DNA of 56,589 nt, counting the filler, from Dugesia japonica (Eukaryota), in the NCBI GenBank assembly GCA_001938525.1. It is 5 parts of 5 records of this genome, joined end to end, with 100 filler letters (N's around TTAATTAATTAA, not from the genome) between each part and the next. Parts side by side here need not be neighbours in the genome. Positions count along the whole stretch, not along the records: positions 11,141 to 22,342 come from MQRL01619254.1; 4 more parts are not named here. One strand, written 5' to 3'. Shown piece by piece: positions 1,380 through 46,819 of this stretch. Positions within the stretch are counted from its first letter, which is position 1; each line of letters opens with the position of its first letter. Under the pieces are notes generated by a model. It searched no databases and was not told where the DNA came from. It saw only the letters and a program-made list of their open reading frames with translations. Position numbers and translations under genes: made by a program.

Positions 1380-3633
1380 ATCAAAAAGTAAATACAAGAC
1401 TTTATTTGTGACTATCAACTGAGATCATCCACTGACCTGTTGATCAATAAATTATGAATACTGAAATTTGAAATGAAGAAAAATGACCACGACAAAATCG
1501 GATACGACAACAAAATGACAAAGATGAATTAATAATGCAATTTTAACGAAAAGCAAATTGACGATAAAAGAATGATGGTAAAATTTCGAAGAAGGAGAAG
1601 ATTGATGATAAGAATTTGATTATGAAGTTTAGTTGAAGAAGAAAACTGACAAAATCAAATGATAATGAAGTTTAGATAAAGGAAAACAAATAGTTCTGTC
1701 GAATACTAAAAGGAACAATAACAAAGTAATCATTGATAAAATTGTGGTAATAAAATGAGTAGTAATAATAAAGATAATTTGAAATGATAATAAATTGTGA
1801 TGATGGAGGAAGTTGGAAATAATAATTTTTTTGGAAGAAGAAAAATTTTGAAGTCGAATTTTGACGGCAAAATGAGTTGTGATGATAAAGAAATTTTGCA
1901 TATCAATAAATTACTGATAATGAAATGGAAAGTCAACGTGAAAAGACGAAATTATCAAAGGGATGATTTGAGATGGAATTGTAATAGTGAAAGGGAAGTT
2001 AATTTCACATTGAATGTGAATCATAAAGAAAAATGTGAATTATAAATGATGATAANNNNNNNNNNNNNNNNNNNNNNNNNNNNNNNNNNNNNNNNNNNNN
2101 NNNNNNNNNNNNNNNNNNNNNNNNNNNNNNNGTAAAATAATTTTCTTATTAGCAATCAAAAGGCTTGTGATGATCAAGGAATGCATTTTCTAACAGTAAT
2201 ATTAATACACATATGAGATATTGATCAACAATACTAATCTTTTATTTTTATTACAATATAGTAATATTATTTTCGTTAACACATTGGTAGAAACTACAAT
2301 TACAGGCTTAGACTTCGTCAGTTTTCACAGTCGTCATAACCTATTTTAATTCGTAGGTTTATATAGTTATAATTCCATCAACGAATAGATAAACTAAGTG
2401 TTCCCAATTAAATTTATCGTACACGCTCAAGACCAATAGAATAAAAAGGCTCAGCGATAGCATCTTAAACAGTGAGGAATTATAATACCACTAACACATG
2501 AAAATTAATGTCTAAACGAAAAAGATAGTTATCCCACCATTTGATGCTAACCTAGAAACAAAAAATAAATCATAATTTAGAATGTCTCGGAAGATTTTTA
2601 TGTCGAAAGCTTAACATTTGCAGTCAGACTAGTCATTCGTTTCACCGTCACCTAATAATCTTCTGGACTTGTGAGAACCTGTCGGAGAGATTGGTTGCGA
2701 TGTTGAACCATGTTGTATGGTACAGGATCACCTCCAATTGAAGAGTTTGGAGCTTTCTGGCCTGAAAGAAGAAAATNNNNNNNNNNNNNNNNNNNNNNNC
2801 CAACTACAAGCAAAACTACATCTAACGGAATATGATCGGATCAATTATAACAACGCGCTTGCGGAACTCATGAACAAAGTCGCCCAGCATTTGAGTCAAG
2901 CCTCAACACCAGCAGCAAACGGGATAGTGTCAAGATGACTTCTGTCGGATAATAAAGCCACTGCCGAGTGCTTAATCGTAAAGATTGAAGTATCAATATC
3001 TTCCTTTGTATATTATGAGATTGAACATGAAAACAAAATCGAGAACCACAGTCTATTTATATTGAAAGTCCAACTTGAAGCCATTGTCTTAAAATATGTA
3101 GTGATATTTAGTGTGAAGAAATCTTATTCTTAATAAATAAATTTTTAATATTATTTTCTTATAGACAATAAACAAAATGAAGATTAAAGATTCGATAAGA
3201 ATAAATTAAATATGTTAATTTTTTTAAAAAACTATTTAATATTTTATTTAGAATTTTAATAAACGTGGAAGTCTGAAAATGAAAAGGAAACTTATAGTTC
3301 AAAACTATAAATATTAATTAATTAATTTTTTATTTCAGAATTATTTTTTTGATGATCCTCCTTTACTTCCGGATATCCAATTAAATTGTGAGTCAGATTT
3401 TTTGTTACTTTTATTTAGTAATTTCTAAGATTTAGTAATGTTAAATAAATTTTTGGAAAATTTTATGATAAAATAAAATAGAAAAATATTTACTTATTGT
3501 ATATTTTTAGAACATTGCTCATCTATGTTGAATATATAAGGGACTATCAGATAAAAACATGCTTTATATCAAATCGAGCTATTCCTTTAAACGAAAAATG
3601 TTTTCATGATGGAATAAAGCAAATAAATGAATA

Positions 3634-5040
3634 AACCCATACACTCCTGAAGCTTATTTACTCATAAACTCTATACACTCCTAAACACCATTCACTCCTA
3701 CACCCCAATCACTTTTTAACCCAATACACTCCTAAACGCTAACAACTCCTAAACTCTATACACTTTTAAGGGTCGTGTGAATCCTGTCCCCAGTCTGTTA
3801 ATATTTTATCAATGTAAATTACATTCTTAAGCTTAGCAATAAATTAATAATATTAATTAATAATAATTAATTTTAGTGACTCATAATAGAAAAATTAACA
3901 AAAATACTAACAATATAATTAAAATATATTAAATTACTAAAAATAAATAAATTTAAAAATTAATTACTATAAATAGGATTTTTAAAAATATTTAAAATTA
4001 ATAACTAAAAACAGTAATTTTAAAATAATAATTTTAAAAAGAAAAATATTAAAAATAACTACTTTATTTTATTGGCCAATCTATTTCTAGTAGTTTCTTT
4101 GATTGGCCACTAATAGATATAAATAAGTAGTTAAACATATTTGCGATGAAGAAAATTTGATTTAAGTAGATAGTGACTTATCGATTGACAAAATTTGATT
4201 TTTGAAGTAGTTAAAATTATAGCAATTGCGCATTATTTATTTGGAATTTACACATTTCAAAATTATAGATTAGTAAGCCTTGTTATATTTAAAATCAGAC
4301 TATAAGTTAGATTATATTCCAATTTAAAAAGTTAAATTGTAGAATATTATCATCTTGATAAAAATCGATCAAGTTAAGGTTTTAAATTATTTAACTTAAC
4401 ATCGAAAAAACAAGTAAGCAGATTTTTCATATAATCTGGACTGTGACTTGAAAGTAATAATAAATATATTCCCTTAAATTCATTGTTTTTTTGAAGACGT
4501 TGATCCAAAAACCGTGAAGAACAACTTTTGTATATTTTTTAAGCATCTTGAAATACTCTTTGCTTTATAAGGTTACACCGAATAAAATTGTCAATAAACT
4601 GGATGATTTTTATAAGAAGTTTATTAAGTTGTTATTGCCAAAATTGAAAATAAATTCTTGAGTTTTATTGTATGTTTTTAAATTCATTTGTTATTTATCT
4701 ATACTAACTAGAATTATAAATATCATTGTGAAACTTAAATGAAACATATCGAAATAAATCATTGTTTTATCAAACTCTCTTAATTTACAGCCACCCAAAA
4801 TTAACTGATTTTGGTCTCGTCAGTTTGACCACATATTGTGTGCACATTTAAATAAACACATAAACTTTTTGTTAAACCTCACACACTCCTAAACCCATAC
4901 ACTCCTGAACCTCATTCACTCCTAAACTCTATTCACTTTTTAACCCTATACACTCCTAAACCCTATACACTCCCAAACCTTATACACTCCTAAACCCATA
5001 CACTCACAAACTCCATATATTCCGAAACACTATACATTCA
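3634..5040. repeat. Degenerate ~19-21 nt minisatellite (ACACTCCTAAACCC/TCTAT) in two blocks, 3634-3770 and 4875-5040
   Basis: Repeated acactcctaaac units on both sides of an unrelated ~1.1 kb segment. Confidence 0.85.
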
Positions 5041-10881: not shown

Positions 10882-11040
10882 GTAATATAATTAATTTGAA
10901 TTAAACTTATTAACAACTAATAAAATAATTAACATTTAATATGAAAACAAAGAAATTTTAATGAATCTGTTTTATAATTTTATAATTACAATTATTGTGA
11001 GAATAATTGTTGGACTTAACCATTGATCGGATTTGAGATT

Positions 11041-11906: not shown

Positions 11907-14900
11907 TTAACATATTTTAGAATCTATTATTGTCCAATCGATAGTAATGGAAAACACAATGGTGTCGTCTTTCAGTAAATTTTGATTACCTAAAAGACTT
12001 TTGAAACTAATAAATTTTTTGGGGCCAACTGGTTGACTAACGTTTAATTCTGGCTTGGGGAAAGTACATTTTGTAGTAATACACGGCTTGGAAAAGTAAA
12101 TTTCTTCTGTTAATTGATTAACCAGACTAAATGTAATAGACTGTTCGACAGGCCAAACTAGGTTTTCATCATGTTTACCTTTCACAACTACAACTCCTAC
12201 AGACAAGTGTGTATTCCAAGAACTTTCAAATCCGTTCGGATAGACAACAAGACATAGCCGATAATTATTTATGCAATAAAACGGTGAACTGTGTAATTGA
12301 GTACGAGCTCCATTTTTTGCATTTTTATGTAACTTGGAAAAATTTTTCATTTCCAAAGTGTATGAATGTGTCTTTGTTATCAACTGGTTTTGATGTATTT
12401 GATTTGGAGAATTTTTTGATTTAGTTTCACATTCATCACTGATTTCATTGGGCATTGAAGCTTCTTCTGAATAGTTTGATATTATCGGTTTAAATTGTTT
12501 TGGAACTGATTCGAAAGAAGATGGAGAGAATATAACCTAAATTATTATATTCTATACAACTTATTTTAACTTATAAAAATTTACTTTTCTTTTAGATTTG
12601 CTACTTTCTTTGAAATCATTCAAATTTTCTTTATTATCTGTCTTCTTTCCGAAATTTATAATTATTTGTTTATCTTTTTCTTTCGTTTCGACAAATGTCT
12701 AATTAGAATTGATTAAATCTCTCATTTTTAAATTTAGTTAACAATAAATTATATAATTTTTCAAAGATATGTCTCCTCAAATTGACCAATAGCGGGAGAT
12801 TATTTTTCCATCAAATTATATTAATTCCATCAATAAAATAAAGTGTAAAGAATAGTTAATACTAGATTTACGGGGAAATTTTCGAAATTTTTTTGATAGG
12901 TTTTAGTAAAAATAAGTATACTATATAGCTACATTTAAAATTAAGGAAACTAATGAAAACCCAAAAATAATACATGTTTAAATCAATAAATAAATAATTT
13001 ACAACATAATGATGAAACAACTGTTTTTTATTTTCTTCGTTTTATGAATAAAAAAAATGTTAAATTACGTAAATCTTAATGTTAAACAAAAGTTGCAATT
13101 CTGCATTGATGTTATCAACTTTCTATATTATTAAATTTAAATATTTCATTAAAGTGCTTTATATATTGGGTCATCCGGAAAGTCTTGTAGATTTTGACAA
13201 ACATATTTTAAATGAAAAGTACGCAAATTTTAACACTTTTATTAAACAAAAAATTATCCATTCTTTTGAAAAAACCTTCGCCATCTGTCAGGCACGCTTA
13301 TAGAAATCATTTCACCTATGGTCAAAAAGTCATCTAGGTACGTTTTGGTGGCCTACAATGAATTAAACTCTCTTCCACTTAAGGAAATTTGTAATTTTCG
13401 GAATAAATGGTAATCCAAAGGGGCAATGTTAAGTGAGTATGGCGGATGAACCATAAATTCCCAGTCGTACTCCTGGACTATACACAGCATAATCAATGAA
13501 ACGTGCGGCCTGGCATCATCATGTAAGACAGCACCTATCCGTTTGGCCAATTCTGGTTGCTTGGCATCGATGGCGGCCTTAAGATCTGCTAATTGAGATG
13601 AATACTTTTCGCCGACGAAGGTCAGCTTTTGGAGTTAATGGAGCTGCCTAACCCCAAGATCTCTTTCTTGTGACCCATTTCTCATACCATGTGATAATCC
13701 TTTAGAAAGATACATCTTCATTTCTTTTAAGTAGAGATTCGCAAGTTATAATTCGAGCAATTTGATTCTTTTCTATCAGATTATGAAGAACCTAGAAATC
13801 ATATCGACTGATGAATCCCATTTTCTTAAAATTATCGTGAATAGTGATTTTTGCAAATTACAAATCTTTTCTAATTTCTTAGAAAAACAAATTTTACTTT
13901 TATAAATTTTATTAATGAAATAATACAGGTTCAAAAAATCTACAGGATTTTCCGGATGAAATAATATTAAGAAAATTGTACAATAAATAAACAAAATAAC
14001 GGTGAATATGGTACAACACTAGTCATGATAAATTAGAAAAAAAATTATTTAATTAAAAGCTTCTATCAAAATATTGTTTTTATTTTTCTTTATATATGTT
14101 TTATTTTTTTAGTTCTCGATAGTATTTAGAATTTTCGATTCAAATTTGGTGAAAATTTTATTGAAATTGTTATTAATTTATTAACATCTTTATGTAAATC
14201 TGAAGTCAGTTCGTGACGAAGATAAAGTCAAAAATTCGAAATAATAGTAAAATCAAATAAAAATAAAACTAAAAAAAATCAAATATATTTTAAAAAAGAA
14301 AACCAATATTTTGATCGAAGCTTTTAATTTTTTGAAATCTCAAATATTTTTTCTCGCAATAATTGTAATTAGAATAAGTAAATTCATAGAATAAAACGTT
14401 AATATTTTCTATTAAAGCATGCAGTATATTACAATTGAATAACTTTATGTCAAGGCAAATGATTTATAATTTTATATATTCAAAGATGATGTGTATAATA
14501 TTCAATATTGTTTAACTATAACAATAGGTAAATAATACGAATAGAAAGGAATTTTAAAAAATAATTGAATGAGCATAATAATATAAAATGAAAAAATGAT
14601 CCCTAAGGCATAAATTTATATGATAGGATGACAATGAAAACAAAAAGACATCCTTGAAATTTTGAAGGTTCATGAGTTCGCTAATTGTTTTAAGTCTAAT
14701 TTCCTTATTAAATTTCTATATTTCAATCAATTCTTGTGTGTTTTGTTCGGTGTCATTGCATTTAGTAAAAATATAAAAGCTAAATACATAAGAACGTTTC
14801 ACTATAAGCTTGTCTTCAATTATTTTACAGGTCAAAAAGAATTTTTAATCGAAATTGTGATAAATCGAATAGTAAATAATAATATATTAAGTGTGTGCGT

Positions 14901-17900
14901 TGAAAGTGAACGTTTTTTTAAAATAGCTNNNNNNNNNNNNNNNNNNNNNNNNNNNNNNNNNNNNNNNNNNNNNNNNNNTAATTTTATATATTCAAAGATG
15001 ATGTGTATAATATTCAATATTGTTTAACAATAACAATACGTAAATAATACGACTAGAAAGGAATTAAAAAAATAATTGAATGAGCATAATAATATAAAAT
15101 GAAAAAATGATCCNNNNNNNNNNNNNNNNNNNNNNNNNNNNNNNNNNNNNNNNNNNNNNNNNNNNNNNNNNNNNNNNNNNNNNNNNNNNNNNNNNNNNNN
15201 NNNNNNNNNNNNNNNNNNNNNNNNNNNNNNNNNNNNNNNNNNNNNNNNNNNNNNNNNNCGGTGTCATTGCATTTAGTAAAAATATAAAAGCTAAATACAT
15301 AAGAACGTTTCACTATAAGCTTGTCTTCAATTATTTTACAGGTCAAAAAGAATTTTTAATCGAAATTGTGATAAATCGAATAGTAAATAATAATATATTA
15401 AGTGTGTGCGTTGAAAGTGAACGTTTTTTTAAAATAGCTCTACTTATAAAAAATGTGAATTATTTGACTGAACTAACTGCTGTTCTTTATGTCAAACATT
15501 TTTTATAAATATTCAGTAAAAACTTTTCTAATAATTCTAACAATATATTTCTTCACATAATTTTAGATGAAGAAGTATATACAAAATAAGCACCATTTGC
15601 GCGAAATGATGCAGTTTCACTTTAACATAAAAAATCTGCTGCAGAAGCTCACAGAATACTAATGGAGGTTTATGGCGAAAATGCTACATCAAAAGCAGTT
15701 TGCAAAAAAATGTTATTAACGATTCAGAAGGGATAAAGATAAAGTGAAGTGAAGATAAAAAAAGCCAGGGCTATAAAGAAACGGTTTAAAGACCAAAAGC
15801 TGGAAGCATTGCCAAATCATTAAATGTTTGTTGATCATCGATAAATCAATGCTAAAATGTCATGAGGATATGTTTACAAGCAATGGAGGTTAGTGTCTTA
15901 CGAACTCAAGCTGAGAGACGTAAAAAGAAACAAAGCCACAAGTGAAACTTTGCTTGCTCGGCGCAAAAGTAAACGTTTTCTGCATTAAAGTGTTACGAGT
16001 GAAGAAAAATGAATTTAATTCCGTACCCCTAAACGAATGAAAATAATTTGAAACCATAGCCAGCCCTGGAAAGTAACACTAAAGAGGAACATCTGTGGGA
16101 AGAATACTCTGCAATTAGGGATTGCAAAACCTAAATCCGGGCTCCCGGACCATTTTAAGCCGGTTTTTGTTGGTTCAATTTCGGTTTTCAAATAATAAAG
16201 GTGTCCGTATCAATTTAATTACAATCTATGGAACTATTAGTCTGGCGATATACTTAATCGGACAGAACGTTTTTGATTATAACAGACAAAAAGATTTGTC
16301 TAAATATAACCCAGGCACAATCAGACTAATTTGTTCAAATTAAATTGCTTTGTTCGGTTTTATATGTTGGTGTGAATTAACTTTTTAGATACATAATGTC
16401 CTCGCAGTTATTATTATTTTAAAAATAAAATTCAATTGTCTGAAGTCACATATTAAATAATATAATTTATAATATTTAATATAATATTTATATATACGTA
16501 TATAATATATGTATGTAATAAACTATATATGTAAAAATCGTTAATTATATACAGTTAAAGTAATACATTTTTTCTTTCACATACTGTGTATTATTACATT
16601 TTTCTGCAAAAGTGAAAATGAGTTAGACTGAAAAAGAACTATTTTAAATTTTAATTTTCAACNNNNNNNNNNNNNNNNNNNNNNNNNNNNNNNNNNNNNN
16701 NNNNNNNNNNNNCATTTTAAGCCGGTTTTTGTTGGTTCAATTTCGGTTTTCAAATAATAAAGGTGTCCGTATCAATTTAATTACAACCTATGGAACTATT
16801 AGTCTGGCGATATACTTAATCGGACAGAACGTTTTTGATTATAACAGACAAAAAAGATTTGTCTAAATATAACCCAGGCACAATCAGACTAATTTGTTCA
16901 AGTTAAATTGTTTTGTTCGGTTTTATATGTTGGCGTGAATTAACTTTTTAGATACATAATGTCCTCGGAGTTATTATTATTTTAAAAATAAAATTCAATT
17001 CTCTGAAGTCACATATTAAATAATATTATATATTTATATATACGTATATAATATATGTATGTAATAAACTATATATGTAAAAACCGTTAATTATATACAG
17101 TTAAAGTAATAGATTTTTTCTTTCACATACTGTATATTATTACATTTTTCTGCAAAAGTGAAAATGAGTTAGACTGAAAAAGAACTATTTTAAATTTTAA
17201 TTTTCAACCCATCTAATGAAAGAAAAAGATGAATATTATCTCCAATATATATTCTATANNNNNNNNNNNNNNNNNTAAATTTTTGTTGATATTTTAAATA
17301 TTCGATATATTAATTATTTTCAATTGCATTTCAATTTTTACACACAGCCATGGGAAATCTCAAGTTCGTCAAGCACCCTAAAAACGGTGATACCTCTTCC
17401 ATTTGGCATTTATTTATGAAAGAAATAAATGAAAGCCATGCAAAATGTATTAAATTTAATAAGATTTTGAAAACTGGAGGTGATACTTTGTGTTTCCTCT
17501 GGGCTTATTTTAAAACAATTAAAAATGTATAGAACTAAAACGTTTATTTAAATTGTAGTGCTATATAGATTTCTTAATTATAATTTGCTAATGAATTATT
17601 ACAAAAAATGAAAAAAATTTGTTATACTGAAATAAAATATAAAATAAAGTTCAATAATTTAATCCTCTGAATTCTTCTTTGAAGTACCAAATTTTCGGTA
17701 TTGAAAACCGGGATATCGGTTTCAGTTCCGTAGAAACCGAAATACCGGTTTTCAAAATTCCTTTCGGTTTTGCATTCCCTATTTGCAATGCATCTGTTTA
17801 GGGCATAAGGGTGATCAATAATGAACTATTAAAACCTGGTTAAAAAATTACATGAACCATCTACCGAGATCTGATAATCCGCCTACGCCAGAAGTGAAAA

Positions 17901-20900
17901 ACGATAAGAGTATGAGATAAGGCAGTATTTAGTAATTTTGATACATGACAACGCTCGGCCACATATCACAAAAGAAGTCCAGGAAATGTAAAAGGAGCTT
18001 AAGTGGGCATTGCTATTCACCAGACTGTACCCCTTCTGACTATCATCTGTTTCGGTCGATGGTACAATCACTAAGCAGCACTTCCAATCCTTTGAAGAGA
18101 TTGATCACTGACTGGTTAAACACCAAAGATGCTGATTTGTTTAGTCGGTGAATTATCTCCTCTAAGATATGAGAAAGTCAATTCTAACAATGGGTATTAC
18201 TTTGGATAATGTATCTTTTTTGGTTTATATTTAAATAAAGACACAAATAAAATTTATTTGTAAAAAAGTTCAAATTTTCGAGAATAGTCTACAATAGTCG
18301 ATAATAGATGTTCCTGAAGAAGACTATTGTCGAAAATTTGAACTTTTTTACAAATAAATTTTATTTTGATCGAAGCCTTTTCTTATTTTAATGAAATCTC
18401 AAATGCGATCAATGGTTAAGTTCAACAATTATTCTCACAATAATTGCAATTATAAAAAAGACACAAAATTGTAAAAAATGACTGACTTTCAACGCACATA
18501 CCTAATAGTAAAAATAATATTAAAAAAAGCCATAAATGTCAAAAAAAAAATGGTTTAAAAAGCCTTATTAAAGTTGAAATATTTATTTAAAATATTATTT
18601 CAGAATTCTCAGAAAATTTATCAGAAAATAAAGATATTTATAAAAATGTTTCTTGTTTTTTTCATCTATTTCAATATATTTTCTCGATTGCATCAACACC
18701 TGTTTTATTATTGTGTTTACTTNATTTGTTCTTTCCTTACTTTCTAGTTTACTTTATTAATCTTTTATTAAATTTTTAAACAAAGATCTTATTAAAAATG
18801 AACATTTGAGATTCTATTGAGAAGAGTATTACCTAGAAGGAAGGATATGTCTCAAAAGAAGGGTGAAATACCTATGTTTTATAATGATTGGAAGGTTTAA
18901 AACAATTAGGAAAGGTCAGTTATAATTTGTTCAAAGGCCGAAGTACAAAATATTTTGTTGAGAAGTGTGGAGATGGACAATAAACGTGTTCGATTTACGA
19001 TAACCATTTTTCCTAAATTACGATAGCAAGAAAGTAATGTAGTTTTATAAAGCGACATCAAAAATCGTGTAGTATTGTTAGTTTAAACTGCATGCTTAGC
19101 CCGTGAATATTATTCCAGATATTATCGAATATGTGACAAAAAGTATTTGCAACATTATATGTTATACGAGTTTTATAGCTCTAAACTTAAGGGATAAATA
19201 ATCGATATTTCAAATAAGGACTTAAGTGAAACAGAATTAGAAAGAAACCAAATTACCGAGAAGCTCCGCACACAAAATCCCAAAGTAAACGATCTCTAGC
19301 AAAGAATTATGGAGTAACTGAAAGGGATATTCGAAAAACGCTCAGCTAATAAGTCAGAGAACACCAAAATGACCAACACTCAGAACTTGAAGATAAGTTG
19401 TTTCTATGGATTGAATGATTATGACGATCTTCTAAGTTCGATTGAAAAAGATATTTAAAAAAATTGCATTGACAGAAAAAATGTTGCAAATCGACAAAAT
19501 TTAAGGCAATTGAAAATTCAAAACTTAGGAGAATTTTTAAATGGATTAAAATATTATATCTGTAGACGACATTTGTTATTTCTAAATATGTAATAACTTT
19601 ATTTTGAAATGCCGTTTAAAATTTTGATTATCTATATTAGTGCAAATATTAAATTAGTACAAAGGCTAAATAAACGTAAAAGCTAAATTCGCACAAAGGT
19701 TAAATCAGTACAAAGGTTAAATGAGTGCAAATGTTACATAATTACAAAGGTTACATAATTATAAAGGTTAAATTAGTACAAAGGTTACATTAGTACAAAG
19801 ATTAAATTATTGCAAAGGTTAAATTATTGAAAAGGTTACATTAGTACAAAGGTTACATTACTACAAAGGTTAAATTAGTGCAATGGTTACATTAGTACAA
19901 AGATTAAATTATTGCAAAGGTTACATTAGTACAAAGATTAAATTATTGCAAAGGTTAAATNNNNNNNNNNNNNNNNNNNNNNNNNNNNNNNNNNNNNNNN
20001 NNNNNNNNNNNNNNNNNNNNNNNNNNNNNNNNNNNNNGGTTAAATTATTGAAAAGGTTAAATTATTGAAAAGGTTACATTAGTACAAAGGTTAAATTAGT
20101 GCAAAGGTTACATTAGTACAAAGGTTACATTAGTAAAAACGTTAAATTAGTACAAAGGTTAAATTAATATAAAGGTTAAATTAGTACAAAGGTTAAATTA
20201 ATAAAGGTTAAATTAGTACAAATGTTAAATTAGAGCAAAGGTTAAATTAATATAAAGGTTAAATTAGTACAAAGGTTAAATTAATACAAAAGCTAAAAAC
20301 GTAATTTTTAAATTAATTTAATAAATTTCAAATTATTTAAATGGAATATTAAAACAACTGAAGAAAACTAATTTATTACTTGTTGAGAAAGAAATAATTT
20401 CTGATTAATTTTCATTTTGCTAACTTGTTCATTAATGTGAATTTGAAAATAATTTATTTTCTTCTGAAATTAATAGAAAAATCAACTAAAAATATTTCAA
20501 TAACAAAAAATCTCTACATCAAATTCTTTTCGTAAATTTTGAATTTCGTTCTTCAAATCAGAATTATTAACATTCAAAATCTCATTTTCTTTCAATGATT
20601 TCAATAAATCTTCATCTTTTCTACGCATTTCTTCTTCATATTTCTTTCCATTTTCATTTATTAAATTTTCCATATTATCGATTTTATCCTATATAAATTA
20701 TATATTGAATAATCAATACTATTAATGATAATTATTATATATCATAAATTAGAAAAAAATATTTGATTAGACCATTTCAAAAGACAATTATGATGAAATA
20801 ACAAAAGAACCCGATATTAAATTTGGAGAAAAATTACTTTTCGTCTAATCAAATCCTTTGATAAATAAATTATTTACATTTAAATTGTCGATTGAAGCTT

Positions 20901-21390
20901 TCGAATTATTTTGTAATTTATAAAATGATGTCAATAAAAATCGCAAATGATCGTTGTTGCAATTATTCAAATGGTCTGTCAATTCGACTGGTAAAATTGC
21001 ATTATTGCAACCCATATTGAAAAATGGACAGACTTCATGGGATTTTATATGCTCTTCCATTTTGATGAGTTCACATTTACAATTGCAATTACTGATTTTA
21101 CATTTCACAACTATCTGTGATATGTCTTTGTTGGCTGGATAATCTATTTGTAGAGAACTACCAATACTAATTATTTGCTTAGAGCAATTTTTAAAAATTC
21201 CTGGACAGAATTTATTGCCTTCACTCAAATAGTTTTCAATGCATGTTAAGCAAAACCTACAACCACAGTGACTTTGATAAACATTAATCGCTATTTTTTT
21301 GCAAAGTATACATTTCAATTCACAATATCTTTCTAGATCGATATAAAAATCATCATTTTTTAATAATTTCCAGACAGTTTCATATTTCAT
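11907..21390 (-). CDS. TRAF-family protein (~503 aa); exons 21390-20878, 20688-20518, 20463-20380, 12698-12585, 12536-11907
   Basis: RING CILC..CGCRFCLTC..CPG, TRAF-type Zn finger (CPFFNMGC..H..H), coiled-coil exons, and MATH domain (LHSSPFY..YRLCLVVYPNG..THLSVGV..LVWP..ITFSLVNQ..GPKKFI..LLKDDTIVF). All four introns are GT-AG phase 0 and give an open frame. Confidence 0.92.
13166..13964 (-). mobile_element. Internally deleted mariner (Tc1/mariner)
   Basis: TIRs ttgggtcatccggaaagtcttgtagattt / aaatctacaggattttccggatgaaataa with TA at both ends; LHDDARPH and HPPYSLNIAPLDYHLF motifs. Confidence 0.9.
14051..14375 (+). mobile_element. Degenerate Penelope-type pLTR fragment with inverted 5' segment and decayed hammerhead core (14209-14241)
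   Basis: 14051-14115 is an inverted copy of 14265-14329; 3' end resembles the 18248 and 46710 repeats; gTGACGA-A-GAT-AAA-GTC-aAAA. Confidence 0.55.
16116..17781 (+). mobile_element. Non-autonomous hAT element with BED-finger remnant (17350-17532)
   Basis: TIRs TAGGGATTGCAAAACC / GGTTTTGCATTCCCTA; 8-bp TSD tctgcaat/tttgcaat; SIWHLFMKE..AKCIK..KILKTGG. Confidence 0.88.
18248..18456 (+). mobile_element. Penelope-type retroposed pLTR fragment
   Basis: TSD aaagacacaaa (18237-18247 / 18457-18467); 5' ~45 nt is an inverted copy of 18321-18367; contains a hammerhead core. Confidence 0.8.
18310..18343 (+). ncRNA. Minimal type I hammerhead ribozyme
   Basis: GTTC-CTGAAGA-A-GAC(TATT)GTC-GAAA-AT-TT-GAAC: stem I GTTC/GAAC, CUGANGA and GAAA core, palindromic AATT stem III. 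Confidence 0.75.
18780..19560 (+). mobile_element. Highly decayed pogo/Tigger-like remnant
   Basis: RSLAKNYGVTERDIRKTL resembles the CENP-B/psq HTH; multiple stops and frameshifts. Confidence 0.4.
19636..20297. repeat. 17-nt tandem repeat AAAGGTTAAATTAGTAC
   Basis: More than 30 degenerate units. Confidence 0.95.
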
Positions 21391-22342
21391 TCTAAATCTT
21401 TAATCTAAAATTTCAACATAAAGTTATTTAAATAATTTTGAAAATTTAAAATATTTGAATGTTAAATGATCTAATATTTAAACAACTAAAAATACAAAAT
21501 GAATAATAGAATTTTAAAACGTAGGTACTTTTATGATTTATAAGCATGCAGTTTTAAGTTAAGTTTCTTTTAATAAATTTATTTGACTGATATTGTACAC
21601 TAGTAACTCTTTAAATCCAACAAAGTTGGCAGCAAAATCTTTCGACATAAAACCATTGCTCAACATTAACACAATTCACTCAAACTCCCAATAAAATATT
21701 TTTTATTATGAATCCAAACCAAAATTTTTAAAATCGAATTCCATGTGTCTTCCGTAAAATGGAAATCCAAATTAAATATAAATTGAGTTTAATTATCCTA
21801 TGCAATCCATTGGAATAAATGAAGTCATTAAAAAGTAGGCATTTATGTTGCAAATACGATAGATGTTTGTGATTTTGTAGTAGCGGATGTTTTATATTGA
21901 TTTTAAAATCTTTTCCAATTTTCGGTCAATAAAGTCCAAAATGGTTACTTATGATCTGATAAGTAAAGATGATAGTAAATCGCAATATAGTTATATCATT
22001 ACATGATACTTATTGCAATCACAACAGCTTATATTCTTTATTAAATGTAACTTTTGAGATTGTTTTATTTCTATACTGCTTTTAGTATTTATAATAATTA
22101 GTTAATGTAAGAAACTGAATAATTATCATTTTTTCAATTTTCGCATGGTAAATTGATGATTTTATTGATCTACTTTATTTAACTTTTGTTGTTCATAGTT
22201 CATTGGTGAAAATGTAAATTATAATCAAAAAAGAAATTTGTACATTTATATATGTTCAATCTGTGATAATTAATATGAGTGAATTAAACAATATTGTATA
22301 TAATTTTTCATTTCTTTGATAATTTTAGATTGAGTATCATTA

Positions 22343-26659: not shown

Positions 26660-27675
26660 TGATGGGCAAACTAAAGACGATATCGGCGGACCAAAAAGTC
26701 CCTCAGTTTTATTGTGGCGTTGAAAAATTGAAGAAAGCAGCTCAAAAACAAATACAAAGACCAACAAGTGGTACAGTTTGAACAAAACAATGTTGAAATG
26801 ATTTCCAATAAGCGTGTATAAAACGTTTGGTATTGATGATTTATGGCAAATGGATTTGATGGAGATGATCCCATTTTCAAATATAAATAAAGGATACAAG
26901 TATATTTTGACATTTATTGATGTATGTAGTCGATTTACAAGAGCTTTTCCGATCAAATAAAAATCCACTAATAATATGGAAGTTGAAATTCAGTCAATAT
27001 TCAAAGATGGACATTCAGATAATTTGCAAACCTTATTTGTGTAAGGAATTTTACAACTCAAAAGTCAAAATTATTTTATCGCATCTAAACATAAACTATT
27101 ATACTGTATTCTCACAGTATAAAGCGACACATGTAGAGACTTAATCGCACATTAAGAGATGGTTTGAAAAAATACTTTGTGCATACTGGTAACAAAACCT
27201 GGAAAAATGTGTTGCAAAATTGATTCATAGGTATAATCATTCAAGTCATAAAGGTTTAAGTGGAGCAAGACCGGTTGATGTAAGTTTAAACAATCAATTA
27301 AAATTATGGTTATCGCGTGATAAAAGTAAAGCAATTAAAAAACCAAAATGTAAAGTCGGTGAATATGTTAGAATCTCAAAAATACGCGCATCTCCATTCA
27401 TTAAAAACTTTGATAGTAATTGGAGCGATGAAGACTTTCAAATAAAAAAAATCAATACTAAACAAATTTCAATCATGTATGAAATTAAAGATTATGAGAA
27501 TAATATTATACAAGAAAAATTCTATGAGCCAGAATTACAAGTCATTACAACTCTTTCTATATATAGAATAGAAAAATTATAAAATCGAGAGGAACAAAGA
27601 AGAATAAATAATATTATGTAAAGTGGCAAGGATATCAAAAACCTACATGGATATTATCATCACAGTTAGTTATTA
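26660..27675 (+). pseudogene. Polinton retroviral-type (rve) integrase with C-terminal chromodomain
   Basis: DDLWQMDLMEM..GYKYILTFIDVCSRF, KEFYNSKV, YNHSSH..RPVDV, KVGEYVRISK..NWSDEDF..KFYEPELQ, YYVKWQGY; frameshifts and stops. Confidence 0.92.
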
Positions 27676-28690
27676 ATGAAATCGAACAATTTCTTTACAC
27701 TTTTACCTAATAATAGCTGTCCTCATATTCATTCGGATAATAATGCTAGTAAATTAATGGTTGAGCTTCAAAATCCGATTTATATGGATGGTAGTTGGGA
27801 AGTAACATTGTTGGATTTTACCTTTGAATATCGAACATTTACATTATATAGCAAATCTAAAATTCAATACATGTCTACAAGAAATATATTAAATGAAATA
27901 AATGTTACAATTAATCACAAACCAAAATTGAGTGTCAGTGAAAATGACAATGCTTATATATCTTATAAGAGTTTTTTAACATTTAGTTGTGAATATCCAT
28001 GCCATCATATTTGAACATGAAAAAATTGCACATAAATTTGATTTCCATATTAGACTAACAACATGGATACTGGATATTTTAGTATAAATAATATATTATT
28101 TAAATATAATTCTTCAATAGAATATTTAAAATTTAAAATAGATTGTTCTAAAGTAAGTTATCATACTATACTGTTGAAAGATGAATAATACATAGCAGAA
28201 TTAGACAAATTAAGTAAATATTTAACAGAAAGCGGTTCTGAACTATTTAATACGATTAGTCTCAAAGCAAATAATCTATTTCAATTGTCGCTAAAAAATT
28301 ATATCAAAACTGTTATATTCAACAAAGTCTTGACAAAAACATTAGGATTAAAAAACCAACAATATTCCATACAGATATGAAGGATGGTGTATTATAAGGT
28401 ATTAGAAATCCAAAAATAATTAACTTACATCAACACATGTTCATCTATAGTAGTATTACTGAACCTATAATTGTAGGAGATGTTAAAGTTCCTCTTTTGA
28501 AATCTATATGGATAGGAAAACATGAAACTGATGACGTAGTACAAATGATAGTTGATAATCCAATGTATTTATTAAATGAAACAACATGTATAAACAACTT
28601 AGAAATTAATATACGTAATGATAACCGAAAATTAATCAAGTTTCCAAAAGATTCAAAAACACATTTAAATTTACATTTAGAAAAACTAAT
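27676..28690 (+). pseudogene. Polinton minor capsid (penton)
   Basis: FFTLLPNNS..NNASK..L.NPI...GSWEVTL and MFIYSSITEPIIVGDVKVPLLKSI..NLEINIRND..LIKF..HL. Confidence 0.85.
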
Positions 28691-29110
28691 GTCTTATCCT
28701 GATATTATATCATTGTATAGTAACAGTCAAACAGGTGGAGAATTATCTTACTTTGTAAGAAAACAGTATAGTTCCGGCTGGTTGTGAACAATAAGTAGAT
28801 TTGCGCTTCCTATTCTTAAGCGTATTGGTTCATTTGGTATGAAAACGGCTCAAGATGTAATAGCTAATAATGAAAAAATATTACCAACATTGAAATCTAA
28901 TGCATTGGCAGAACTTGGTAATGTAGTGTCTTTGTTACCTAGTGGAGTAATTTATATGATGTTACCATCCAGTATAACAAATAGGATTCCATCGGAAATA
29001 AGTAATATGATAACAAAGCAACAGCAAAAAAATAATAAAAACCGTAAAAAATCAAAAGCATCACGTATAAATAAACGAATGAAAGGACATGGAACAACTT
29101 TTGAAAATGA
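28689..29110 (+). pseudogene. Polinton Q-x-G-G small protein (putative core/membrane-active)
   Basis: YSNSQTGG..KQYSSGWL*TISRFALPILKRIG..AQDVI; basic C-terminus; lies between penton and MCP. Confidence 0.6.
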
Positions 29111-30338
29111 TTTTTGCGATAAAACTGAATTATGTATTTTTTTTGTCCATTATCTCAAGCAGTTATTGAAAATGGTGCATTTGAAGATGGGTTTCCAATG
29201 AATTTAATTTTTGAATCACAAAGCGATATAAAGTTTTTTATAAATTGATCGTAAACTGAATATTTGGATTTAAATGATACTTTATTGTATATTAAAACGA
29301 AGGTTGTTGAAAAGACAAGCAATGATTTGGCTGAAAAACATGATGCGATTCATAGTAACTATATATTTCATATGAATTTTAAGGATGTCATGCTTTCATT
29401 TAATAATTTCAAAATTAAAGGTGGAAATGGAACATATAATCAAAAAGCATTGATTGAAACTATATTATATTATAATGGTGACAGTAAAAATATTTTTCTT
29501 ACGGCAATGGGGTATGGATCTGAAGAAAAAAGAAAACCGTATGTTAAAACATCAAACAATTGTATGTATGTGGTTCATTGCAATCTGACTTTATGGATCA
29601 ACCGAAATATCTCAGTTCAGGTGTTAATGTTCACATTCGATTGAAAAGAGCATCTCCTAAAATTTGTTTGGAATCTGCAGCCAATAAACCTACCTATGTA
29701 TTACTAGATGCAAAATAAATGGTTAGACGTATATGAATTGAACCTTCACTAGTGGCTGGTCATCAATTAGGATTAAATAAGAAAAGTCCGATTTATCCGA
29801 TAAAAAAGAAGGAAATTGTTGCGTTTGCAATTAGTAAAGATAGTACATCATTTTATAAAGAGCAAATCTTTGGTGATTGTCGTTTACCCAACTTTCTTTT
29901 AATTACATTTCAAAATGGAGATCAATATAATGGTAATTATAAAACCTCTACTTCACCATTTCAACATTTAAATTTTACTTTCACATCATTATAAAAAATA
30001 TTGATTATCGAGAGACATATTCAAGATTTTGAAAACGATAATTAAAGTACAACATATATGCAATTTATTGTTAGAAATGTGGTATATTTGGATAAAAATA
30101 TGAATTGTGGAATAACACTTGAAGAATTTAAAAGCAAATATCCGTTTTTTACATTTGTATTGGCTCCGGATTTCGATATAAATCAAGTCAATTGCCTCAA
30201 CAAGGAAATTTAAGATTGGATATAAAGTTTGCTAAAGATTTGACTGCGATAACACATGTTATAATAAATGGAGTATTTGAAAGCGAAATACAAATAAATG
30301 CTAATAGAACAGTACTAGTATATACAATATCTAGTATA
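29100..30338 (+). pseudogene. Polinton major capsid protein (double jelly roll), lineage 1
   Basis: CDKTELCIF, EYLDLNDTLLYIK, YNQKALIETIL, GVNVHIRL, RLPNFLL, QGNLRLDIKF..GVFESEIQI. Confidence 0.85.
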
Positions 30339-30419
30339 ATCAAATTTTTTAAAAAAATGAAGTAAGTTTTTATTAAATTTATAAATATTTTACTTTATTA
30401 GTTCTTTTCAGATTAATCA

Positions 30420-30760
30420 AATTGAATCAAAATTGTTGAGATTGTCTTGGTAGGGAATATATCTTTTAGACAAATTCCCATACTTTCCAGTTAATAAAGC
30501 CCTAATCGTCAATAATGAAACATTAAATCTTGGTGGAGAACATGGAATAGCAGTTTATCATAAGTCTGCAATTATGTTAGTTTTTGATTCACTGGGATTT
30601 TTTTATCCGCATATGTTGGTCTCACATCTCTCAAAAATATCAAAGCCAATTGAATATAACAAAATTCGATATCAAAATCCATTTACAATAACCTTCGGAC
30701 AACATCGCCTATTGTGGTTGAAATATTTACATTATGGTTGAAACATACATGTATATTTGT
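30420..30760 (+). pseudogene. Adenain-like cysteine maturation protease
   Basis: LIVNNE..GGEHGIAV..VFDSLG..YNKIRYQ..TFGQH; catalytic Cys position mutated to Phe. Confidence 0.8.
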
Positions 30761-31334: not shown

Positions 31335-32558
31335 ATGGACTCATAAAGGCGACTGCCATAATATTATGGAGAAATATTATGGTCAGTGTTTGTATTACAT
31401 ATGTCCAGCATGAAGATCTATAAGAATAAGTGTATACTTTGACTTTCATAGGTTCCATGCAGACCACTTAGCACAGTTTACAACAAATAAAGAACTATTA
31501 TTAAAGTCGATATTAGATAACGGGATAAATGTGTCAAAGAAAAGTAGATGCAATAGTTATATCAGATGAAGAAATGAAGGTGGAGACCGAGATAATTGAA
31601 GATGATTGAAACAATTTTCGAATACTTGATGAAATGGATGAAGAAGATATTTTCATGCAACGTTTTATAGATAAAGAAGAATCACAAGTTGATTTCCCCC
31701 TCAATGAAGATGTGATAATAGAAAGTAACTTATAAAGATGTCACCAGATATTAAAAATTGCTGATTCAAAGTGGAATACAAGACAAATCGTTTTAACAAA
31801 ATCCTTGATTGAGCAGTTATTTAAAGTTATTAAAGAATTAAAAATAAAAAAAGCTTCAATCAAAACAAATTGTATTTTTCTATAAAAAATACATTTTTTT
31901 TGATCGAAGCTTTTTCTTTATTTTAATGAAATCTCAAATGCGATCAATGGTTAAGTCCAAAATTATTCTCACAAAAATTGTAATTATAAAAATAAAAAAA
32001 TGTCCAGATCCAATTTGGGATCAATGTAGAATTTGAAAAAGATGATGAAACAAAAACTTGCAGATTATCTAATCAAGCTGTTTCATTGAACGATTCTTTT
32101 TTCAAAGATGACATAAAAGAATTAAATGATAATATAGCTATAAGAAGCGAGCTTGGATCTAGTTGCATACTGAGCTGCATATTGGAAATAAATTTTAAAA
32201 TCACCAAGGTATCAGAAATCGGTAGTCTATCTGGACACAGTTACATTCCAACACCGGAAAACTTGGAAAAGAAAAAGCCGTTCTAAATATTCAGAATAAT
32301 GACAATATGTTTTTCCTATACAGCATTCTGGCTGTACTCAAAAAGGATAAAGTTAGAAAAAATCAGAATTGAGCTGAAAAATATAAAGATTATATATCCG
32401 AGTTTGTATTCGATGTTATGGACATGCTGATGAAGCTCGCAAATTTATCAAAATTTGTTAAGCAAAACCTGGGCTTATCAATTAATGTTTTCTTATGGAA
32501 CCATCAATCAGTGGAGGAAGATGATGATGTTATCCTGAAGTATCCAAATTTAGACATT
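31335..32558 (+). pseudogene. N-terminal part of protein-primed DNA polymerase B
   Basis: QIQFGINVEFEK, SGHSYIPTPENLEKKK(fs)VLNIQNNDNMFFLYSILA, LSINVF; truncated at the second terminus. Confidence 0.8.
31853..31986 (+). mobile_element. Penelope-type pLTR 3' fragment inserted in pPolB
   Basis: Same 3' sequence as the 18248 copy; short inverted 5' part; TSD taaaaataaaaaaa (31839-31852 / 31987-32000). Confidence 0.75.
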
Positions 32559-36299: not shown

Positions 36300-38963
36300 A
36301 ATATGAAGATAAAGAAAAATGTATTACTACATCAAAAAGTTATTACCCAAGTGTAACAGTGAAAGAAACCAAATCCACAAAATAGAAATGCTCTTTTAAA
36401 AATATTACATTCTACTGGTAGCATAGCTTATTTAAATATAACAGGGGAAATAAAATTCCAATGTTTTCAATCTACTAATCCCATAGATATTTGTAAATGT
36501 ATGTTGTATTAAAAAATTGAAATTGAATTAATAGATGATGTCAAAACAAATGTAACTTTGGAAAATAATTGGTTTCCTAGTTTATTTAGTACCATTAGAT
36601 TTAAAATTAGATCATCAACAATTGAGACTATACAGAATCTAAGAGTAACTTTTACCATGTTAAATTTAATTTTATATGACAAGAGTAGTTTACCATGTAC
36701 GATGGCATATGGTTGGATTCCTGATGAAAAAGATAAAACAATTAAAGACTCTGGTTTTGAAAAGAGAAAAGATTTGTATATACTCAAATATGAAGGTTAT
36801 TTTCTTATTAGAAACTTGTTTGGATTTTTACAGAATTATAATAGGTTACTATTTAATGTTTGTATAGAATTGGATTTTAATAGACAGATTACTAATGATT
36901 TCAGATTTTATGGACCATAAAGTAAAAACATTAACATTAAATACTCTTGAACCTCATATTCCAGAATGGACTTTAAATCCTAGAGTAGAATTAAACTATT
37001 TGGATAGAATAGCAACAAATAAATCAATTCAAGTAACATTTTAGAACGAGATGATGGACATGTAACAAATACTGATCAAGGTGGTTATTTAGAAAAGTTG
37101 AGTAATCCTGGTTATAGACCTAGATTTATAGTTATTGGATTCAAAAGTGAGAGAAATAATTTTATAAATAATAATTTATTTACACAAAAAAGCGGATGTG
37201 GTAAAAAGAATTCCAACAGCAGCATATGTAACAAAAACAGAAGATAAAACTTTTACCTATTATCCTAAAAGCATTCAGATACAACTAAATAATACATATT
37301 ACCCAATTAATCGAATGAATTTTGATTTAGCAAGAATTTGTAATATATTCCCATTAGGGTTTCTCATTTCCCATAGATTTAAAATCCCTGGATTCTCAGT
37401 AAAAAAATCGTTTCATCCCGGGATTTCCCGGGAAAAAATATAAATATTTTAAAACATTGAATCAAATACGTATTCTAGAAATAATAATAATTTATTTCAA
37501 CAAAAAGAAACTGTAGAAAATAATAAATTAATAAAATAAGATTTTGAAAAAATAATAAATAAAACAGATAAATAAAACTCACAATTCGAAATTCATAACT
37601 GTCGTAGCCCTGGGACTTGTAAGATAATAATTCCCTTTTGAAAGGTATTTGCTTATTGAAATATCTTTTATTGTTTGTCCTGTTTGCCACCATGCATTAT
37701 TATTCCACTTCTTTATTTAATCTTTTAATTTTCCAAAAGTTAACTTAAACTAATTAAAAAATAGAGATAAAATCAATTAAAGTTGATATACCAAGGCGTC
37801 AACATATCAATAAAAACAATTTGACAATAATTCAATACAAACGATTTATTTACATCCTTATGAGGTTTTGACCACCACAATAACATAAGCATTAAAAATC
37901 CAGGACATTTACTCTAAATTATTTTTGAATTAAAGAAATGTTTCAAAAAGCAGAAATTATCAATTGATTTATCACTTAATTTTGAACGAATTTTTATGAC
38001 AAACAGTCCCGCCACAGAAAACGCTCTTTCCGATTCAATCAATGTTGGCTTGAATGCATATTATTTAAATTTTCAGTACGCTTTCCAGTGTCCTCGAAAA
38101 TATTTATTTTCTTTGTGAGGTTTTTTAAATCGTAATGCTTACCTAGCATTGATGTTTCACCTTCCACCCGTTTGACATTACAAATAGCAGCATACAATTT
38201 TTCCCGAAGTGTTAAATCAACTTCGCTAAATGATCTTGAGGCAGCTGGCTGAGGTATCAGTAAAATGTCGTCTTCATTGCCATGACTCTCGTCTTTTACT
38301 TGATTATATGCCGAAGTATCACTAACATCCTCAAAGTATAGCCTAGTGAAAAGTTTTTTAGCNGTTGCATGTAATGCATATTTGGAGGGCAAGACCAATT
38401 TGGAATTGATATCTTCCAATTTATAATGATAATTTGACAGGCGGTTTAAAAATCTTAGTAAGCCAACTAAATTTATATTTCTGCGTTGTTGAATTCTTTC
38501 CTGACAGATTGAAGCATTTTAGTAGAAATCCAAATATCAATCCAATCCCAAAAATTTAAGAAATTAAGTTAAACAAAAAAATTGGTTTCCCGGGATATAT
38601 TACGTATATCCCGGGATATCCCGCTATCAATTTTACCCCTGGGATCTCGGGATCCCGTTTAAGAAACATTAATTCCCATTTCATGTCTATGTAGAAACTT
38701 GTAATGCTTTTATGAATTATCTTCAATTGGATATTATTCAATGGAGTAAATTGTATCCAATATATTATTTTGATCCTTTAGCACAAGATGATAAACTAGC
38801 AATAAAAAATGTAGATATAACATGTTATTTTACCAAAGATAATGAATTAAAAGAAAAATGGTATTGGTTAATACTAAATGAGAAAAATGTGGAATTAGAG
38901 ATTGCAGATGCAAAGGTTATCTTTGTAGAGAATATTAAAGGGGAGAAGGTTCTATCTAATTAA
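36300..38963 (+). pseudogene. Polinton major capsid protein, lineage 2, split by a hAT
   Basis: ENNWFPSLFSTIRFKI..IETI, NLFGFLQNYNRLL, RPRFIVIGF, IQIQLNNTYYP; after the hAT, WSKLYPIYYFD..QDDK; start approximate. Confidence 0.75.
37355..38671 (-). mobile_element. Deleted hAT transposon
   Basis: Perfect 8-bp TSD attcccat (37347-37354 / 38672-38679); TIRs tagggtttct / agaaacatta; cccggga subterminal motifs; dimerisation motif IESERAFSVAGLFVIKIRSKLSDKSID. Confidence 0.92.
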
Positions 38964-39049
38964 ATATTAGTGAAAATTTTGTTAAGATTAAAGAAGACCT
39001 TGTGAAAACCTTTTGAAGATTAAAGAAGACCTTGTGAAGAACCAAAGAA

Positions 39050-39410
39050 AATGAGATAATAAACTATTTCAAAAGATTGTTGATGATTACAATAATACTA
39101 TTCATAGTTCAATTAAAGTTACTCCTCAAGAAGCAAGTAATGATCCTGAAATGATTAAAGAAATAATTAATAAACATAATCATAAAAATTATTCTATTTC
39201 GTTTAAACAGAAATTCAAATTAGGAGATCGATTTAGAATATTTAAATACAAGTATAACTTTGAAAAAGGATTTACAGCTAAATGGATCAATTTTTTTATT
39301 TACTGTAACACGAGTCTATAATACAAAACCATTTACCTATGGAATTACTGATTTGGTTAATAAAAGATTCTTGGTCTTATTTATGATAATGAGTTACAGA
39401 AAACTAGTAT
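39050..39410 (+). pseudogene. C-terminal part of Polinton integrase
   Basis: IVDDYNNTIHSSIKVTPQEA, KFKLGDRFRIFKYKYNFEKGFTAKW, YDNELQK; catalytic core deleted. Confidence 0.85.
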
Positions 39411-46359: not shown

Positions 46360-46393
46360 GTTCCTGAAGAAGACTATTGTCGAAAAATTGAAC
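46360..46393 (+). ncRNA. Minimal type I hammerhead ribozyme in Penelope-type repeat 46285-46476
   Basis: GTTC-CTGAAGA-A-GAC(TATT)GTC-GAAA-AA-TT-GAAC. Confidence 0.7.
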
Positions 46394-46785
46394 TTTTTTA
46401 CTAATACATTTTATTTTGATCGAAGATTTTTCTTTATTTTAATGAAATCTCAAATGCGATCAATGATTAAGTCCAANNNNNNNNNNNNNNNNNNNNNNNN
46501 NNNNNNNNNNNNNNNNNNNNNNNNNNAGAAAAGTGAATAATTTTCGAAATTAATCCATGCTAAATAATGAACGAACACGATGATGATTGGCCAGAATAAC
46601 AAAAAAAATACAAAATTTAAAAATTTTAATTATAATATATCTAAATATTTTATTAAAAAAATTTTGAGTTAATTTAAAAATAAGAATTAAAATCCATAAT
46701 TAAAATAANCCAATAAAATTTTGATAAAATCTAAAGAATTGAGTAACAAAGATCTGTTTCGTTGTATATATCAAGAAGACATCAT

Positions 46786-46819
46786 GTTCCTGAAGAAGAC
46801 TATTGTCGAAAAATTGAAC
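46786..46819 (+). ncRNA. Minimal type I hammerhead ribozyme in Penelope-type repeat 46710-46935
   Basis: Identical to the 46360 copy. Confidence 0.7.

Follow-up and report, generated by a model that had tools for sequence, protein, structure and literature searches.

A repeat at 18248-18456 of a 56,589-nt stretch of the Dugesia japonica genome (five joined parts of assembly GCA_001938525.1, filler included, hereafter the window) is best read as a copy of the pseudo-long terminal repeat (pLTR) of a Penelope-like element (PLE) of the endonuclease-bearing (EN+) type. On this reading, to which we give a probability of about 0.72, the pLTR contains a minimal hammerhead fold for which cutting is predicted in the dimer alone, while the short copies are likely dead by-products of capped, uncut RNA. 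The repeat is numbered from +1, the A of ATGTTC at window position 18308, to +149 at 18456, the longer of its 3′ ends, with the catalytic core starting at +7 and the predicted cut falling after +32. It is not a chance sequence, as the exact 36-nt core has 742 matches in the 854-Mb genome compared with 0 for the reversed control; the last 33 nt, at the 3′ end, have 3,343.

Parent element

On sequence grounds the repeat is the pLTR of an autonomous EN+ PLE, since it stands directly before the start of an open reading frame (ORF) and again after the 3′ untranslated region (UTR). The order of the element, pLTR, ATG, reverse transcriptase (RT), cysteine linker, GIY-YIG endonuclease, 574-nt 3′ UTR and pLTR, was assembled by extending outward from the repeat through genomic copies and is the canonical PLE layout of pLTR, ORF, UTR and pLTR as described in PMC4209133, PMC11167929 and PMC2377424. 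In the 5′ direction the copies extend through a shared A/T-rich UTR into the GIY-YIG endonuclease (L042) and the RT (L045, L091), with the stop codon 574 nt before +1 in L091, and RT and endonuclease share one scaffold with the repeat in L091 and L103. In a search with the N-terminus of the ORF, the 3′ end of the repeat was found to reach the start codon about 6 nt later in L309, L310, L311, L318, L325, L327, L334, L335 and other loci. Copies contiguous with the RT and GIY-YIG ORF accordingly exist on both of its sides, with the 5′ and 3′ joins seen in different loci, the fragmented assembly having given no locus with both ends and the whole ORF. Other traits of EN+ PLEs are likewise present, namely a single ORF with a PLE-type RT plus a GIY-YIG domain at the C-terminus, direct pLTRs on both sides, inverted 5′ pLTR arms, an optional tail and variable target-site duplications (TSDs).

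The longest open RT piece (297 amino acids, aa), used as a query, found 12 proteins. P0001, an intact ORF of 843 aa, is 77% identical to the family, matches RVT_1 and GIY-YIG in Pfam and aligns from residue 1 to 806 along the family loci. Single family fragments gave only a weak RT match in Pfam, and a search of the PDB with the RT fragment gave no match. First-look candidates for the RT region number 4,221, and its copies agree to about 88-90%. Reads over the junction of pLTR and ORF show no splice joint, at low depth; an intron in the 5′ leader is present in the Penelope element of D. virilis and is not universal among PLEs. The initial annotation had proposed an abundant PLE pLTR with a minimal type I hammerhead, which is borne out by the linkage to the ORF, the make-up of the motif and the 742 core matches. 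Its alternative designation, a retrozyme family, is not upheld, as no tandem monomer family was found and the repeat belongs to an element that has a coding region.

With respect to the clade, the endonuclease carries the CCHH signature, with C-x2-C between the GIY- and YIG-like boxes and two His (L103, P0001), the linker has the form C-x3-C-x-C-x5-C, and DKT stands in place of the DKG motif (P0001; L103:2048-2500); the more distant homologues P0004, P0006 and P0008 have the CxxC form of the linker. The Nematis clade, as described in PMC8557442, shares the C-terminal GIY-YIG with CCHH kept and has a similar short Cys-rich linker, there of the CX2-5CxxC type, and the VPxHL, GLAMG and RYIDD stretches were matched by eye to rows of the supplementary alignment of that work. 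DKT and a C-x-C-x5-C linker are described there for the Hydra clade, as in this family, but the Hydra clade endonuclease lacks the CCHH present here, and membership in that clade was rejected for this reason. By motif, a tentative Nematis-like placement is somewhat favoured, and the mix of CCHH, DKT and C-x-C-x5-C could indicate an intermediate lineage between Nematis and Hydra.

Hammerhead motif

The putative minimal type I hammerhead, recognised by sequence, fold and covariation between subfamilies, lies at 18310-18343 on the plus strand and spans nt 3-36 counted from +1. Stem I is formed by GTTC and GAAC (18310-13 and 18340-43) and encloses the CTGAAGA core (18314-20), an extra A at 18321, stem II as GAC-TATT-GTC (18322-31), GAAA (18332-35) and the palindromic helix III AATT (18335-38), with the predicted cut after U17 at 18339, where the initial annotation had correctly placed it. 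The motif as written there holds for the copy at 18248, whereas 14051-14375 is a decayed sister copy with a broken core. As described in PMC4209133, minimal hammerheads form families with compensatory changes and have one nt between 9 and 10.1, a G10.1-C11.1 pair and a palindromic 15.2-16.2, and all four traits are found in the window motif, which combines CUGANGA, one extra nt, a stem II with G10.1-C11.1, GAAA and UH, with helix I closing. The minimum-energy structure of a 44-nt stretch consists of exactly stems I and II, at a stability not exceeding that of shuffled sequences (z -0.85, 38/200). A scan of the window with Rfam gave no hammerhead family at E<=5 and 7 weak unrelated matches; the curated models miss this minimal form.

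Conservation of the core over its flanks, which the initial annotation had named as part of a refuting test, is absent within the family (0.904 for the core, 0.891 for the stems and 0.930 for the flanks in 55 copies chosen without requiring the core, two rows being one locus), as expected of dead copies drifting neutrally; as copies are dead on arrival, this comparison was set aside as a test of function. A signal is seen between subfamilies. A loose pattern with AAUU, with N7 and loop II variable, gave 3,185 matches. When the pattern instead required a change at each of the two inner helix III positions, 4,753 matches resulted, and the self-complementary AUAU occurs in 96 of the first 100 matches listed. 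At position 17, the AUAU group has G in only 65 matches, while C, A and U all occur among the matches listed. Avoidance of G at this position is the rule for cleavage (NUH rule). At least about 7,900 intact-core motifs are thus present in several sister subfamilies, the AUAU group being the larger, and the sister subfamilies alter only tolerated positions, with the dimer palindrome changed from AAUU to AUAU. Across 21 hand-picked rows, 4 of 11 pairs have two-sided changes (G-C to A-U in stem I, A-U to U-A in helix III), and the covariation score reaches 0.207, compared with 0.084 when shuffled and at most 0.062 when slid. These comparisons indicate that the fold is under selection between subfamilies. 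Cutting is predicted to occur only in the dimer, dimer cleavage being attributed to Lunse et al. 2017 in PMC6765202.

Ends of the copies

The single common 3′ end of the initial annotation is replaced by two, as 60 of 85 evaluable segments, selected by a pattern at +57..+87, stop near +90 and the other 25 run on towards +149. These two fixed ends correspond to the optional tail that PMC11167929 attributes to a pair of internal start sites of the RT.

At the 5′ side, long copies have C before +1 in 49 of 55 cases. On the other hand, G directly precedes the core region (+1) in 114 of the 742 exact matches, and about 113 of these 742, some 15% of the core-bearing copies, start at +1, 6 nt before the core, after an extra G. 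Inspection of 96 distinct G-preceded copies identified 95 as true 5′ junctions, 64 of them direct junctions with unrelated sequence and 31 following an inverted arm, and one as a point variant. With a pattern shortened by 2 nt, 102 matches have A or T before +1, and among 30 that were inspected 10-11 turned out to be long copies with a point change. Overall, G accounts for about 62% of the scored +1 junctions, with 12% expected from local composition (local G content 0.106), in a count where C junctions at +1 are not scorable and matches may include allelic duplicates. An unbiased set of 46 junctions has none at +33 and 4 at +1, each of them preceded by G. Counts of which base follows an inverted arm were dropped, since they re-count G-selected copies.

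The predicted cut marks neither the 5′ nor the 3′ ends of the copies. On its 5′ side, a non-T base precedes +33 in 16 of 758 matches, only 5 of which are junctions; on its 3′ side, +33 is non-G in 72 of 1,062 matches, and none of 29 evaluable copies ends there. As an extra G is described as a mark of the cap in full-length L1 insertions (PMC11702581), the extra G at the +1 junctions is, by analogy, likely a copied cap. Because the copy ends ignore the cut, G precedes +1 and the two 3′ ends are fixed, capped, uncleaved RNA is likely what gets inserted. In five copies (L139, L362, L364, L382, L389), short re-copied pieces of the first 4-10 nt precede the +1 junction, as would result if the RT had slipped repeatedly at the 5′ end of the RNA.

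Proposed mechanism

RNA polymerase II would start at the A of +1, at a C/A step, which would make the hammerhead nt 3-36 of the capped RNA. The protein of the element would nick A/T-rich DNA and start reverse transcription internally at about +90 or +149, a step derived from the copy ends together with the in vitro work on the Anolis element. When started in the 5′ pLTR, the RT would run off the capped end and leave stubs of G plus +1..+90/149, a start in the 3′ pLTR would give rise to longer, variably truncated copies, and priming on both target strands would produce head-to-head pairs; copies would be left only by uncut RNA. The weakest step concerns the ribozyme, presumably kept by selection in source elements, where two pLTRs pairing through helix III, probably with the protein of the element, would cut 32 nt behind the cap or split a tandem read-through RNA, and cut RNA would thereby be removed from the pool that is translated or inserted. 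The role of PLE hammerheads is described as still open in PMC8557442; within the present model, decapping or the splitting of tandem transcripts appears to be the likeliest one. A bolder version, with chances clearly below even, would place PLE hammerheads right at the beginning of the capped RNA, with decapping under control of the protein as their function in place of template processing, so that they serve as a switch, and would take the G-start solo copies as a strong-stop-like fossil record, which maps the start site and both priming sites from genomic DNA alone and proves that only capped, uncut RNA was inserted in vivo.

Several observations weigh against the reading of the short copies as by-products of capped RNA from a PLE with a working hammerhead. 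With respect to element and ribozyme, an intact ORF of this subfamily was present in none of the loci examined. The rows that carry the covariation are related and were picked by the core pattern, so that columns without change follow from the selection, and the changes represent few independent events. By nearest-neighbour rules, the active dimer reaches -6.0 kcal/mol compared with 2 x -5.8 for the inactive monomers, so that unaided cleavage is likely weak, in agreement with the low activity described in PMC4209133 and the protein-assisted cleavage in PMC11167929; this subfamily moreover has U at position 17, and its intrinsic activity may be very low. With respect to the G, six direct G-start copies have a TSD reaching the junction; in two of them, L019 and L363, the TSD leaves out the G, and in the other four, L009, L027, L336 and L342, the TSD includes it. 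An inverted arm could supply the G in 31 of the 96 G-start copies, as it could for the G at 18307 of the window copy, and about a third of the +1 junctions have A or T instead. G-start copies are also skewed to one haplotype, with G at +56 in 54 of 75 compared with 6 of 54 long copies, as would be expected if the 5′ and 3′ pLTRs of the source elements differ; a separate short master would give the same skew. Finally, in RNA-seq reads from five runs neither starts nor ends accumulate at +1 or at the cut, an outcome that speaks neither for nor against the start site, as the poly(A)/cDNA libraries are unsuited to 5′ ends. The raw RNA reads cover the pLTR in both directions and mostly continue into unrelated sequence, the ORF start being thinly covered: the repeat sits inside many host transcripts.

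Alternative explanations

Among the alternatives, the one that survives best, improbable as we consider it, is that the G-start copies represent a non-autonomous short element, SINE- or retrozyme-like, with a templated G and source copies of its own, mobilised in trans by the PLE protein. The haplotype skew would follow directly, solo copies far outnumber ORF-linked ones both in RNA depth and in the loci examined, and retrozymes have been argued to derive from pLTRs (bioRxiv 2026.07.22.740005). Against this stand the occurrence of G-start copies in at least four haplotypes that long copies also have, 3′ ends that are both identical to those of long copies and the lack of a common sequence 5′ of the G among G-start copies; furthermore, a single degenerate head-to-tail array (L028) was noticed in the first 30 loci, and copies ending at the cut, which circular monomers would be expected to leave, were not found.

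Still less probable is that the hammerhead cuts the RNA and that cut, re-ligated or circular RNA serves as the template, later steps setting the ends of the copies, as in the model of Cervera and de la Pena 2014, proposed in PMC4209133 together with low dimer cleavage of a Schistosoma motif. Selection on the fold is compatible with this, and copies running across the cut site fit re-ligated RNA; yet a circle has neither a cap nor a free 5′ end, while about 15% of the core-bearing copies stop at G/+1, 32 nt before a cut at which few copies start and none of the 29 evaluable ones ends, and cleavage mutants still insert in vitro (PMC11167929).

The least likely alternative, a fold that acts as a protein-binding or dimerisation signal without cutting in vivo, the G arising from microhomology or from end-addition by the RT at a pause before the folded motif, could draw on the weak AAUU helix III with its unfavourable dimer energy, the G inside the TSD in four of the six clean cases, a further cluster of junctions at +3 to +10 and the absence of RNA ends at the cut in libraries not made for 5′ ends, but it leaves unexplained why A, C and U alternate at position 17 but G is shunned there, and why the share of G is raised about five-fold over local composition exactly at +1, G preceding +33 in only 7 of 758 matches.

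Comparison with known elements

The minimal hammerheads of metazoan PLE pLTRs described in PMC4209133 share with the present motif the CUGANGA and GAAA boxes, the extra nt between 9 and 10.1, G10.1-C11.1, a short helix I, the palindromic 15.2-16.2 and subfamilies with compensatory changes, as well as thousands of solo copies from truncated PLEs and opposite-strand pairs. Helix II, in contrast, has 3 bp here compared with 7-8 bp in Schistosoma and 6 bp in D. virilis, the motif here lies 2 nt behind the putative capped start, and the copy ends argue against the cut-and-circularise model put forward in that work.

The closest functional comparison is Poseidon PAc of Anolis carolinensis (Frangieh et al. 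2024, PMC11167929), for which internal RT starts were reported in vitro to define the tail, with both strands primed, uncleaved RNA as the main template and cleavage that needs the protein. In common are the order pLTR-ORF-pLTR, an optional tail bounded by a pair of fixed 3′ ends, A/T-rich targets and the absence of ends at the hammerhead cut, with uncleaved RNA the probable template in this family as well. In PAc the ORF starts inside the hammerhead and the RT starts 111-118 nt into the ORF, whereas this family, with a tail of about 59 nt, has its ATG downstream of the hammerhead and of both 3′ ends; PAc is described as lacking a Cys linker, which this family has, and no mention of a cap-derived G was found for PAc in the accessible text.

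Non-LTR retrozymes (bioRxiv 10.64898/2026.07.22.740005) are, according to the available part of that report, similarly short non-coding units with a type I hammerhead and kin to PLE pLTRs, but they form tandem repeats with one hammerhead per unit, while here the units are scattered singly or as head-to-head pairs and, in long copies, adjoin an ORF. The element type, the minimal hammerhead, the tail and the fold-backs are already in print; the family is new. A literature search of the accessible texts, including PMC3846280, PMC2377424 and PMC3681739, turned up no description of PLE copies with a cap-derived G, although subscription papers and supplements may hold one.

Copies of the repeat in the window

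All six places listed in the initial annotation match the repeat by blastn and spread over four of the five joined parts. Its inverted 5′ segments are present too, whereas its A-rich TSDs are restricted to the copy at 18248, the only one in the window with a clean TSD. This consists of 11 nt, A-rich, AAAGACACAAA, at 18237-18247 (plus strand), repeated identically at 18457-18467. Between the two duplicates lies first an inverted, truncated second pLTR arm on the minus strand, about +14 to +59 of the repeat (18248-18290; blastn match 18249-18290), which has no CUGANGA box and hence forms no complete hammerhead on that strand. It is followed by a 17-nt junction filler (18291-18307, plus strand), built from small stretches of the inverted arm copied again; its last base is the G at 18307, where long copies have C (reading CCAAC before +1). 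The forward arm, +1 to +149 at 18308-18456, would be the 5′ leader of the PLE RNA, reaching from the putative transcription start almost to the ORF, whose start codon follows about 6 nt later, as in the loci joined to the ORF ATG (among them L309, L318, L310 and L311). Its optional tail, between the +90 and +149 ends, is predicted to fold into an 8-bp hairpin with a CUCAC loop (18426-18446, plus strand), which is kept in sister subfamilies. The ATG at +1 opens a short frame across the hammerhead (18308-18390) and is probably too near the putative cap for an efficient start.

Of the remaining copies, 10978-11040 (minus strand, 95% identity by blastn) comprises the 3′-terminal 62 nt of the pLTR, truncated where its joined part ends, 14051-14375 (plus strand) is the decayed fold-back copy from a sister subfamily with loop II of the AAA type, and 31837-31990 (plus strand) is a fold-back with a forward arm of about +45 to +149 and a short inverted arm, without a hammerhead. 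The copy listed as 46710-46935 extends 5′ to about 46604, and this longer copy (46604-46935, plus strand) contains about 180 nt of 3′ UTR in addition to the pLTR, with a helix III altered to AAAT, which is not palindromic. At 46284-46476 (plus strand) lies its probable assembly duplicate, 100% identical over 193 nt; the same unique flank precedes both, at 46099 and 46528, on either side of assembly gaps. The initial annotation counted two copies here, each of which does match the repeat, but from these flanks they are most likely one locus assembled twice. Identical blocks of 180-190 nt flank N gaps at 46099-46935, 14748-15439 and 16288-17208; these are false assembly duplications, which inflate repeat counts.

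Surrounding sequence

A second RT in the window, at 41550-43190 (minus strand), is broken and PLE-type, with a DKG motif and no visible endonuclease or hammerhead end. The initial annotation had suggested that RTs like this one mobilise the repeat, which was ruled out: it is 31% identical over 231 aa to P0001, the intact relative of the family, has no nucleotide match to the family UTR or pLTR, and as a member of a different family is unnecessary to explain mobility.

A MATH exon at 11910-12536 and a RING exon at 20848-21399, both on the minus strand, flank the copy at 18248, and two pLTR insertions lie between these exons of a putative TRAF-like gene. The MATH exon, used as a query for homologues, gave no match. 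If the two exons form one gene, the hammerhead arm would be antisense to it, and no effect of cleavage on the RNA of that gene is expected. The copy itself sits in the 3′ end of a decayed transposase gene (17850-18240 and 18468-18510), which we take to be mariner-like and whose translation shows HDNARPH and YSPD-x-x-PSDYHLF stretches; the insertion point is about 40 nt before the apparent terminal repeat of that element.

Elsewhere, decayed ORFs at 27193-30741 and 36513-39321 resemble, presumably, elements of the Polinton/Maverick type, with a weak double-jelly-roll match at 36513-36917 (E 0.007). Further decayed DNA-transposon-like ORFs at 13353-13634 and 55182-56006 (minus strand) are assumed from their motifs to be mariner-like and pogo-like, the tested pieces giving no match in Pfam. 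Tandem repeats of 17 bp and many (TAA)n tracts occur at 19564-20366 and 3615-5019.

Implications

In vitro work had identified uncleaved RNA as the template of insertion, and the family provides genome-wide support in vivo for this result. It also leads to a precise prediction, namely that the capped RNA begins at +1, 32 nt upstream of the cut. If this is true, cleavage would remove the cap, and the ribozyme would be a brake or switch on the expression of the element itself.

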